Shown: in pieces, positions 12,931-16,762 of the stretch
How positions within the stretch are numbered: position 1 is the stretch's first letter
How the letters are laid out: the number at the start of each line of letters is the position of its first letter
Assembly: GCF_015207735.1 (NCBI RefSeq)
Contig: NZ_JADEWG010000122.1
Coordinates: forward strand, 1 to 19,218
Length of the DNA stretch: 19,218 nt
DNA from: [Phormidium] sp. LEGE 05292
GTDB taxonomy: Bacteria > Cyanobacteriota > Cyanobacteriia > Cyanobacteriales > Aerosakkonemataceae
Direction of reading: 5' to 3'
The notes under the pieces: model-generated
Databases searched by the model: none
Told to the model about the DNA's origin: nothing
What the model saw: the letters and a program-made list of their open reading frames with translations, nothing else
Program-made: the position numbers and the translations under genes

Positions 12931-14007
12931 TTAAATCCCCCAGCGCCAACTTGGTGTTTTCACTGGTGCATCCCAGAGTCGGATCGTTTCATCATCTAGC
13001 TTCAACAAAGTTATGGAACAACCTTGCATATCTAAAGATGTCATGTATGACCCAATCAAGTTTCGCACAATTTGCAATCCTCGTTGTTGACAGATAGCAG
13101 TTAATTCCTGGTAGACAACATACAGTTCGGAAACAGGAGTACCACCCATACCATTAACGAATGCTAAGAGTCGATCGCCCGATTGTAATGGTGGATTGGT
13201 TAGTTCCACATCTGCCCATTCGCCTAATTTTTCATCCCACTCGCGCACTGTCCGGCTATAGCTGGTGTCGTCAATGATAGATTTTGCCAAAATGTTGGTA
13301 ATTTCGGCTGCTGACTTTAAGTTAATGCGTTCTCTACCCGGTTCACCATGAATCCCGATGCCAATTTCCATTTCCCGATCGCCTAATACAAATGTCGGGC
13401 TACCTTTTGCTGGTGTGGTACAAGAGCTGAGGGCAATTCCCATACTACGCCCATTCACGTTCACTCGTCTGCACAAATCTGCTATTTGTGACAGATCATA
13501 TCCTTGCTCGGATGCTGCACCACAAATTTTTTCCGCCAGTACTGTTGTCCCCACACCCCGTCGTCCTTGAGTATAGAGACTGTCTTTCACCGCTACATCA
13601 TCATCTATCAAAATATTTAACACCCGAATACCCTGACTGCGGGCTAACTCCGTTGCCATTTCAAAGTTCATCACATCGCCACTGTAGTTTTTGACAATGT
13701 AAAGCACACCTGTGCCACTATCTACCTTTTGGGTAGCAGCAAAGATTTGGTCGGGGGTAGGCGAGGTAAAAACCTCTCCCGGACAAGCCGCATCCAGCAT
13801 TCCCGTACCGACAAAACCGCTGTGCATCGGCTCATGACCGCTACCACCACCAGAAATAATTGCTACCTTTCCCTGTATTGGTGCATCAATGCGGTAAACA
13901 AAAGTGGGATCGTATTCCACTTTGATTAAGTCAGCATGAGCTTGTGCCATTCCTGCTAAACTTTCTCTTACAAAGTCTTCTGGCTTATTGATCAGTTTTT
14001 TCATCAC
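12931..14007 (-). CDS. dhaK: Dihydroxyacetone kinase Dha-binding subunit DhaK.
   Basis: [11 protein letters not shown] motif with the catalytic His of the DhaK family. 358 aa. AAGAGG SD before the ATG. Confidence 0.9.
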
Positions 14008-14050
14008 AACCTCTTTCTGTTGGGCAGATTCTACAACTAATTGCTAAGTT

Positions 14051-16762
14051 TCATGTTTCTCGATCGCTTCTTGGTAATTGCTGTGTTTGAGAAGTAACAG
14101 GACTAATCAAACCTTGAGCCGTACTAAATAAATTAATTGGATTTTTCCCATCAGTAATTAACACACTTTGTAGACCTAATGATTGCAAAAGTCGTGCTTG
14201 CATTTCTGGGCCAGCTTGCGCCATTGCTTGCAAGGTTTCGGGACCGAGCGCTTCTACTTTTTGTCGGAATTCAAGACTAGTAATTTCCGCCATTCTTTGG
14301 GCTTTTTCCAGCTCTAAATTATTCAAACTTTGTTGATGAGCTAATTCTGCTTCTTGTTTAGCTCTCAATTGAGTCAATTCTGTTTCATAGCGAATTCGCG
14401 CCGCTTCTGCTTCTTGTTGAGCTAAATTAACAGCTAATTGACCTTCAATTCTTGCCGCTTCTGCTTTTGCTCTCGCTGCTGCGGTAGCTTGACCTGTAGT
14501 TTCGATCGCAGAGTTTTCCGCTTGCAATTCTAACAGATTTCTCCGTTCCGCTTCGGCTGCACCTTTATCAACAATTGCCTGCCTTTCTAACCTAGATTTT
14601 GCTTCTTGTTCGATCCGTTCGGCATCATGTCTAGCAGCAGCTTCTTGAGCATCAGTAGTAATTTGAATCGCAATTTGTACCGACTTTTGCAAACTTTTCA
14701 AAGTTTCTTCATCTACGGGTTCTACTGACTGAATATCAACGTTAAAAATCACCAAATTATTGGTTCTAAAACGGAATTCTTCCCGCACTCGACCTTCGGG
14801 ATCTGTACCAAATACAGCAGTACGAATAATCCGGGCAGAATTGCGGTGAAACTCGTCAAATTTGACACTGGCTACTGCACCCCGAACGCGAGATGCGATC
14901 GCCTTACAAGCAGTATCTACAAAGTCAGGAACTTGAAAAAGTTTTGCCGATGCTTGTTCATCATCTCGATTAACATCAAAATACCAATTATAAGATAAAC
15001 GTAACTGAAGTCTGGCATGATCTGATGTTTCAACTGTGAACAAATCAGTCATAAAATCCGGGCCTAATAACAAGGCTAAAGTCTTAATTACATGAGGTCT
15101 TTTTGGTACGCTACCGGATAAACTCAACACCGTAAAAGCTTCATCTGGCCCCAGCATTACTAAGTCTGGGCCAAATACAGTTCTGGCGGTTCTTTCCTTA
15201 TATTCATGTATTTGTACAGCGGCATTTTGGGGAACATGGAAAACTACAGCCCTAGTTTTATTTCGTTCGCTTTTTGTCTCAGATCTTGAAGAAATTTCTG
15301 ATATTTGATTTTGGCGATCGCCACTTTTGTTAGTATGATGTCTTCCCCTTTCCGAAACCGGATCGTTTTTAATTGCTAATAATTCTTCCACAATTGGTGG
15401 CAATTCTTTTTCCCACAGTTCTTCATAAGGGCTGAGCATATAAGCTTGCGGGCCACTAACAACTTTCACTTCACCTGTTTGAGTATCTCTAATATAAATT
15501 CCTTCATTCTTATCCAAAGGAATTGCTTGACGTTTTTCAACTACTTCTACTTGCACAGGAGGGATATAATCTCTTGGCCCTGCAATCATCCACATATCCC
15601 CAGGTTGACGTTGAATTAAATTATCACCTTCACCCTCACTAAAAGCTTCTTTAGCTTTTAACAAAAGTGCTTCCTGTTCCCCCAAAACATAAACTTTTTG
15701 AATCCCCTTTTCCAGTGATTCACCTGGATGTAAGAAAAAGGAAATTCTCCCCTGTCTCACTTCTTGCATTCCCAATTGTGGTTTACCATCTTCATCAATT
15801 GGGTTAAGAACAATACACCATTCTCGATCGCCCAAAGTGGTAATTTCGACTTCTCCCACCACCTCTTCATAAATATCAGGAATATGTATTTCTGCCTGTT
15901 CAAAAGTAACTAACCATTCATCACCTGCTTTACGTTGCCGACCAAAAACATCAGTAAAAGTGCGTTTAGCTTTCAAATGTAAGGCTTTTTTTTCGGTCAG
16001 TATGTAAGCAGCAATAATGCCAATTACTTCCTCATCTACTCCAGGTAAATAAGCACCTTCTTCTCTCACTAACCATTCTTCACCTGCTCTTCTTCTGATA
16101 CCTTGGCGATCGATACAATTCTGCCTTGCCATCAGTCGCAAAGCTTGATTTGGTTTAATTACTCTAGCAGCTATTTTCTCTAAAACTTGCACTTGAATCC
16201 GAGGAATATAAGTCGCTGGCCCTTCAAATAACCACTCATCTCCAGCTAAACGGTTGATAGTTTGGGTTTCACTTTCTCCATCGATGGTAACAGTAATCGA
16301 ATCAGTAAAATCGCGTTTAGCTAATAGACGTAATGCTTGATTTCTCTCGACAACTTGCAATTGTGCAATTTCTTCCGCTAGTTGTTCGCCTGGATAAAGG
16401 GGAAAAGGTTCTTGTGCAAAGCGAATTTCTGCATCGCCATAACGAAGTTTAATTTGTCCGTGTTCGTCAACAATAGGATTACCATTTTCATCACGAAGCA
16501 CCGGATTAGCAACAATACAATAATATCGTGGTGGTACAATAATCATTGGTTCCGGTTTTAATATTAACCGTTCGTGATCGCGCAAAGTAATAGTTTGTGG
16601 GCCAACTTCCAGTCTAGTCACCCCACTATTGTTATCTAAAACGTGAATAAATTGCTGTGGTTTTAAGCGAATTATGCCGCTAGCAATTCCTGGTAATTCG
16701 GGTTTGTTTTCTGTAGTGCGATCGCTTATATTCATAGCCATCTTTTCCAAGTAACTCAACAC
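14051..16762 (-). CDS. Major vault protein (MVP) homolog, near full length: N-terminal vault repeats, SPFH-like shoulder, and cap-helix coiled coil. The likely true start is the ATG at 16741 (MAMNISDR...); 16762 is an upstream in-frame GTG.
   Basis: Matches my recollection of eukaryotic MVP along its whole length. N-terminal [27 protein letters not shown] ... [13 protein letters not shown]. Repeated GDEWL(V/F) ... GAYLP/GPATYIP vault-repeat signatures. [34 protein letters not shown], nearly identical to animal MVP as I recall it. Long Ala/Glu-rich C-terminal helix. The gene contains 3 HIP1 sites. Confidence 0.85.

Follow-up and report, generated by a model that had tools for sequence, protein, structure and literature searches.

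We know of no organism in which the function of the vault has been established; a conserved genomic partner of a bacterial gene for the vault protein MVP would be a valuable lead. In operons that encode a shell and its cargo, such as those of encapsulins and bacterial microcompartments, the two genes are found together in genome after genome, and the cargo has a targeting peptide or domain. In the dihydroxyacetone kinase of E. coli, DhaM has only a truncated enzyme I (EI)-like N-terminal part and relies on the general EI and HPr proteins. Daly et al. (PMC3762200) described MVP homologues from cyanobacteria in 2013 and predicted their docking competence in silico; Sokolskyi (bioRxiv 10.1101/872010) described such homologues again in 2019. 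Here we analyze a stretch of 19,218 nucleotides from [Phormidium] sp. LEGE 05292 (the whole contig NZ_JADEWG010000122.1, hereafter the window), in which a gene for an MVP homologue directly precedes dhaK-dhaL-dhaM, the genes of a phosphoenolpyruvate (PEP)-dependent dihydroxyacetone kinase. Very probably, a recent rearrangement on a plasmid-like replicon joined these two independent and known gene sets, so that their adjacency is accidental and does not mark a functional module.

Results

The adjacency of MVP and dhaKLM is confined to one narrow lineage

Coordinates are in window numbering, and gene identities were assigned by Pfam profile matches (Table 1). All large open reading frames (ORFs) between 3101 and 18898 in the ORF list of the window are on the minus strand. 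A sequence-only reading of this DNA had placed the MVP gene 43 nt upstream of dhaK on the same strand, with an AAGAGG Shine-Dalgarno sequence and no obvious terminator hairpin in the spacer, and had given gaps of 1 nt between dhaK and dhaL and of 30 nt between dhaL and dhaM. The sequence bears out each of these points. No terminator-like site was found in or near the MVP-dhaK spacer by a promoter/terminator pattern scan, and no stable fold was detected at 13985-14110 (z = -0.01 relative to shuffled sequence). The layout is therefore that of an operon, i.e., one strand, short gaps and no terminator between the genes. The MVP stop (TGA, 14053-14051) ends at 14051, as had been read; the dhaK start, read as the GTG at 14007, is more likely the ATG at 14004, because all orthologues begin with MKKLIN, and the spacer would then be 46 nt long.

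To learn whether MVP genes elsewhere adjoin dha genes, as that reading had asked, one genome per GTDB species was scanned. This gave 55 MVP loci, mostly from filamentous cyanobacteria, with some from Thiomargarita/Beggiatoa-type bacteria and Chloroflexi, and up to 10 kb was taken on each side (50 loci had at least 1 kb downstream, and 40 at least 5 kb). The clade concerned is that of [Phormidium] sp. LEGE 05292 and Floridanema (Aerosakkonematales); outside it there are 54 loci, 49 of them with at least 1 kb downstream. tblastn with the window DhaK, DhaL and DhaM revealed dha genes near MVP in none of these 54 loci. The sole match among the 55 was L042, Floridanema evergladense BLCC-F167 (Aerosakkonematales), the nearest genome relative of the window, which is 93-97% identical and shares its whole backbone.

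Downstream of MVP, almost every lineage has a gene of its own, often on the opposite strand and usually 100-700 nt away. All-against-all clustering of the ORFs around the 55 MVP loci revealed no widely shared neighbour. Once antisense artefacts inside MVP were set aside, the largest neighbour family was that of generic histidine kinases, and the others were lineage-specific (pentapeptide proteins, a Na/H exchanger, UvrD, MCP, porphobilinogen deaminase, a trypsin-like protease). Even the nearest MVPs outside the clade (89-91% identical; L001, L145, L146 and L147) have their own shared context without dha genes: an NB-ARC ATPase and Uma2 upstream of MVP in L145-L147, and two small ORFs followed by cytochrome b after MVP in L001, L145 and L146. 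Across these ~55 genomes no conserved neighbour of cyanobacterial MVP emerges, and the gene behaves as a stand-alone one, which calls for caution with guilt-by-association arguments.

The converse search gave the same picture. DhaK has hundreds of close relatives, the named ones nearly all from Nostocales. Among 89 dhaK loci (80 metagenomic and 9 obtained by look-up; 76 with at least 500 nt upstream), MVP precedes dhaK only in L056, an independent Logan assembly of a near-clone in which the junction recurs with 96.5% nucleotide identity over 4224 nt. In Nostoc NIES-2111 (L057) a divergent gene lies 670 nt from dhaK and an insertion sequence separates dhaL from dhaM, and in L141 an acyl-CoA dehydrogenase gene precedes dhaK. 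In L142 a PNPOx gene is located 43 nt upstream of dhaK on the same strand, and an opposite-strand gene lies between dhaK and dhaL; a short co-directional gap before dhaK is therefore not specific to MVP. A megablast search of a plasmid collection with 9768-16762 gave no match. We conclude that dhaKLM is not a conserved partner of MVP. The compartment or triose-stress module that the sequence-only reading had entertained finds no support in these two sets of loci, and its fallback, fortuitous adjacency at a lineage-specific junction, is the better reading.

The spacer joins the end of MVP to a native dhaK leader

On the MVP side, the nucleotide similarity of the window gene to those of L001, L002 and L037 ends at 14061, ~10 nt before the MVP stop; upstream, similarity to L003 extends to 16921. 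The C-terminal ends of the proteins differ, the last residues before the stop being ...DR in L001, ...DRASET in L147, ...DRANET in L056 and ...DRET in the window. On the dhaK side, homology to native dhaK leaders covers the 29 nt at the 3′ end of the spacer (TTGTAGAATCTGCCCAACAGAAAGAGGTT): in local alignments, none of 2000 shuffles reaches the score against the L059/L060 leader, and 3 of 2000 reach that against the L057 leader. MVP is not found upstream of dhaK in any of these three loci. The 10-mer TTGTAGAATC occurs six times in ~3 Mb of fetched loci (both strands), always in a dhaK leader. Three other lineages (L057/L058, L059/L060) keep it at the same spacing from the dhaK start codon, and L144 has TTTTAGAAT there. 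In L057, L059 and L144 the leader is immediately preceded by a conserved block, TTATGCTG; the window has other sequence in place of this block and of everything beyond it. Thus, dhaKLM appears to have arrived with no more than ~30-39 nt of its native leader and to have been fused nearly at the MVP stop itself.

The sequence that follows MVP in other genomes is missing here. At most MVP loci a strong stem-loop follows the stop at no more than 150 nt, and the one conserved in L001, L145 and L146 has a 15-bp stem and a variable loop; the window shows one of the weakest, with its best structure falling within dhaK. The junction might have arisen through microhomology at TTGTAGAA, which is present both in the dhaK leader and in the left hairpin arm of the MVP terminator. 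The AATTAGTTGTAGAA of the spacer resembles the hairpin arm of L001 (9 of 2000 shuffles score as high, several flanks having been examined), but in L147 and L056 the codons up to ...GAAACTTAG prove to be native MVP sequence, which counters this origin, and the case for a junction formed at TTGTAGAA is only suggestive.

From these data we propose that a stand-alone gene for a eukaryote-like MVP and a self-sufficient PEP-dependent dhaK-dhaL-dhaM operon were brought together by a rearrangement with a breakpoint within a few bases of the MVP stop. The MVP 3′ flank, with the hairpin that sister lineages conserve, would have been lost; this would have taken away the terminator of MVP along with distal sequence of the dhaK promoter, and have left in place the last ~30-39 nt of the dhaK leader, with TAGAAT and the ribosome-binding site. 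Transcripts from the MVP promoter (16763-16921) would then probably read through into dhaKLM, and a weakened dhaK promoter, reduced to its -10 box TAGAAT, may contribute. Read-through is plausible because the genes are on the same strand and the short spacer has a ribosome-binding site and no terminator. Hence, of the MVP-dhaKLM transcription unit that had been suggested, the layout stands and co-transcription is plausible, though accidental; the functional module does not follow, since the adjacency is not conserved.

The same spacer raises a second possibility, that the genes are adjacent yet separately transcribed, with MVP transcripts ending at or before the junction. An independent dhaK promoter is possible because the spacer keeps the native leader with a -10-like TAGAAT, which agrees with TATAAT at five of six positions; the conservation of TTGTAGAATC or TTTTAGAAT at this spot, and nowhere else in the ~3 Mb, speaks for such a promoter, and cyanobacterial promoters often have no -35 element. 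However, the TTATGCTG box and all beyond it are gone, no sequence feature was seen that would stop MVP transcripts, and L061 carries TTTTAGCAC at the position of the box, so that a TAGAAT-type box is not universal. The promoter scan, which the sequence-only reading had proposed for the spacer and for the region upstream of MVP, reports a site at 16813->16784 in the latter and none in the spacer; it gave fewer sites than shuffled sequence and is uninformative for promoters. We regard separate transcription as unlikely, but as an explanation to be kept in mind.

MVP, dhaK and dhaL are under purifying selection in two lineages, and MVP and dhaKLM decayed together in a third

The non-synonymous to synonymous substitution ratio (dN/dS) was calculated between the window and L056 for dhaK (0.06), dhaL (0.16) and MVP (0.12). 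These values, 0.06-0.16, show that the three are functional genes, which have been under purifying selection since the window and L056 split. Over 12291-16514, dS is 0.16-0.20 for dhaK and dhaL, about twice that of MVP (0.08), even though the genes are adjacent; recombination or differing codon constraints could account for the gap.

In L042 (9840-12065, compared with 9764-16924 of the window), MVP and dhaKLM have been cut to ordered fragments by at least four deletions, so both are dispensable there. The missing window segments are 15620-16520, 13542-14431, 10298-13430 and smaller ones, with overlaps of 1-6 nt at the breakpoints, and the flanking backbone is 93-94% identical.

The replicon is plasmid-like and rearranged

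The remnant of a CyRepA-type gene upstream of MVP and the ParA/ParB module downstream of dhaM point to a plasmid-like backbone; proteins with DUF3854 are cyanobacterial plasmid Rep (CyRepA) proteins (PMC10079941). The similarity of the remnant to the L042 ORF ends at 19091, stop codons interrupt its upstream frame at several points, and the part with DUF3854 falls outside the window. The backbone is also visibly rearranged. The 626-bp segment 8165-8790, with an HNH/RRXRR endonuclease ORF between parA and parB, is probably a small mobile insertion, since L042 lacks it. The 537-nt region upstream of MVP (16763-17299) likewise includes a stretch of 129 nt (16925-17053) that L042 does not have; by eye this region gave the impression of a degraded transposase, but its stitched translation had no Pfam match. 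A rearranged plasmid-like backbone is the sort of place where unrelated accessory genes become neighbours.

Two further genes of the window encode unusual fusions and are conserved in L042: one for an MgsA/WRNIP-type AAA+ ATPase with a ~300-amino acid C-terminal extension (4758-6977), and one in which a MOSC domain is fused to an MGMT-type DNA-binding domain (3991-4761).

Table 1. Features of the MVP-dhaKLM region, in window coordinates
Feature	Position	Strand	Basis or description
MVP homologue	14051-16762	-	903 aa from GTG 16762; Pfam Vault, Vault_2/3/4, MVP_shoulder, E 2e-68 to 9e-17
MVP upstream region, conserved with Aerosakkonema L003	16763-16921	-	blastn alignment to L003, 14073 to 16921
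MVP-dhaK spacer, 43 nt, meeting point of two unrelated sequence blocks	14008-14050	-	Sequence; no hairpin
Native dhaK leader inside spacer, TTGTAGAATCTGCCCAACAGAAAGAGGTT	14008-14036	-	Alignment to dhaK leaders of L059, L057
TAGAAT, -10-like box	14033-14028	-	In retained dhaK leader
AAGAGG ribosome-binding site	14015-14010	-	Sequence of spacer
dhaK, dihydroxyacetone-binding subunit	12931-14007	-	Pfam Dak1, E 4e-128
dhaL, ADP-binding subunit	12291-12929	-	Pfam Dak2
dhaM, 830 aa	9768-12260	-	Pfam EIIA-man, PTS-HPr, PEP-utilisers_N, PEP-utilizers, PEP-utilizers_C
Partition module directly downstream of dhaM	7029-9586	-	Pfam
ParA	8786-9586	-	Pfam
HNH/RRXRR insert	8216-8578	-	Pfam
ParB	7029-8156	-	Pfam
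CyRepA-type (DUF3854) plasmid replication gene remnant	17300-19091	-	93% identical to C-terminal part of 1055-aa L042 ORF carrying DUF3854

MVP and its neighbourhoods in other genomes

In a single alignment, residues 29-887 of the window MVP match residues 6-850 of the solved rat and human MVP chains (E 7e-299, ~1e-296). Over its full length the protein has the vault repeats (four Pfam Vault stretches; all its Pfam matches exceed the curated cut-offs), the shoulder and the cap-helix coiled coil of the family. The NCBI annotation starts it at ATG 16741 (896 amino acids) and names it 'colicin uptake protein', and it is 100% identical to protein P0121 of [Phormidium] sp. LEGE 05292. Exact-sequence look-ups of P0121 and of the window DhaK returned no record. 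The conserved region 16763-16921 probably holds the MVP promoter and 5′ untranslated region. The site reported there by the pattern scan, TAGAAA-18-AATAAT, is weak evidence because of the excess of sites in shuffled sequence.

The surroundings of MVP in two other groups are worth recording. In L145 (3701-8682), L146 (1516-6560) and L147 (3089-8673), MVP lies just downstream of genes for an NB-ARC/VMAP-M9 STAND ATPase and a Uma2 nuclease-like protein, among toxin-antitoxin genes (HicA, PemK, DUF433/DUF5615). This locus looks like a defence island, and may recall the NACHT ATPase TEP1 of eukaryotic vaults. In three Oscillatoria (L012, 8060-11411; L013, 13288-16627; L018, 13945-17281), a SrpI-like family-2 encapsulin with a cNMP-binding domain is encoded 0.6-1.3 kb downstream of MVP, followed by a cysteine desulfurase of 639-643 amino acids. 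Two unrelated shell-forming proteins are thus neighbours, an arrangement seen in that lineage only.

DhaK, DhaL and DhaM form a self-sufficient kinase

DhaK aligns over its full length with E. coli DhaK (4lrx_A, E 1e-138), and all three motifs are conserved, including NYxGD with its Asp and GIHGEPG with the substrate-binding His. Residues 29-39 of DhaL are LDAAIGDADHG (D30, D35, D37 and H38), the motif of the Mg-ADP site. In DhaM, the motifs of the phosphorylatable His residues in the EIIA, HPr and EI modules (VSH9S, GLH(168)ARP and TSH(450)SAI) are present, as are CGE and GTNDL of the PEP-binding domain, and residues 264-824 align with full-length EI structures. The roles of the DhaL and DhaM residues are taken from the published work on E. 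coli. By its sequence, DhaM is a self-contained phosphoryl relay of EIIA-man, HPr and a complete EI including the PEP-binding domain. The catalytic and phospho-accepting motifs of a PEP-dependent dihydroxyacetone kinase are thus found across DhaK, DhaL and DhaM.

The three proteins were compared with orthologues that have no MVP neighbour. They are of similar size (DhaK, 357 amino acids in both; DhaL, 212 versus 207-214; DhaM, 830 versus 831-837) and collinear from end to end, and no targeting extension or extra domain was found in any of them. The long DhaM with a complete EI is common to the Nostocales relatives L057 and L059.

Discussion

An adjacency that is confined to one narrow lineage and lies on rearranged plasmid-like DNA points to an accidental and recent fusion of a stand-alone MVP gene with a dhaKLM operon. 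Four points weigh against this reading. With the MVP terminator lost, the genes are probably co-transcribed, so that 'transcription unit' may be accurate in the strict sense. The close spacing of the genes persists in two diverged lineages, the window and L056 (dS 0.08-0.20), with the three tested genes under purifying selection. MVP and dhaKLM decayed together in L042. Finally, the genome scan took one genome per species, which limits its coverage of the clade. The second and third points do not discriminate: joint retention and joint loss fit functional coupling and plain physical linkage on an accessory element equally well.

A true functional operon, in which a vault-like shell would serve as scaffold or enclosure for the dihydroxyacetone kinase, or would share its regulation in a response to reactive trioses, is very improbable. 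It could draw on the same-strand layout, with a ribosome-binding site and no terminator in the 43-nt spacer, on the intact ORFs and low dN/dS in the window and L056, and on the common loss in L042. Against it, none of the 54 MVP loci from outside the clade (49 with at least 1 kb downstream) shows the adjacency and, among the 89 dhaK loci (76 with at least 500 nt upstream), it is found in the near-clone L056 only; the spacer is a fusion scar that contains an unrelated native dhaK leader; and the Dha proteins have neither a targeting extension nor an extra domain. The two families also differ largely in taxonomic distribution, MVP matches being mainly from Oscillatoriales-type filamentous genera, and named DhaK matches at 78-86% identity almost all from Nostocales. 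A literature search for a link between MVP and dihydroxyacetone returned unrelated proteomics papers only.

An adaptive fusion, which placed dhaKLM under the MVP promoter or coupled the kinase to a vault-like shell as a new reactive-triose/dihydroxyacetone module, would, if true, offer a first hint of what a bacterial vault does. It could draw on the retention under purifying selection in two diverged lineages and on the joint loss in a third, but we give it hardly any credence. As for a chimera of contig assembly, which the short (19.2 kb) whole contig of a draft genome might suggest, it has practically no chance of being right, because the same junction is present in L056, an independent assembly from a different sequencing run at 96.5% identity, and the gene order survives as ordered fragments in F. 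evergladense BLCC-F167.

How does this locus compare with known systems? It resembles the shell-plus-cargo operons of encapsulins and bacterial microcompartments in that a shell-forming gene lies beside a metabolic enzyme operon on the same strand. It differs from them in both of their hallmarks: MVP and dhaKLM are not co-located across many genomes, and the Dha proteins have no cargo-specific targeting peptide or domain. There is no evidence here that a vault-like shell and the kinase work together.

Taken separately, each partner has close described relatives. The window MVP is homologous to the rat and human proteins from end to end, across repeat domains, shoulder and cap helix, and is a member of the cyanobacterial group that includes Moorena/Lyngbya F4Y3B4 (L041 in our set, 78% identity). 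It differs from eukaryotic vaults in that no TEP1, PARP4 or vault RNA partner is evident, and a closed vault particle of 78 subunits is putative for this protein. No Rfam RNA family was detected in the window. DhaK and DhaL are full-length orthologues of the E. coli subunits with their catalytic motifs, and the order dhaK-dhaL-dhaM is the same. The differences from E. coli are the DhaM of 830 amino acids, with its complete EI and PEP-binding domain, and the absence of a DhaR-type regulator gene from the window. DhaKLM is a textbook system, cyanobacterial MVPs were already known as well, and no new kind of system is present. What the MVP-dhaK junction provides is a small and clean example of an accidental operon, formed when a rearrangement removes a terminator.

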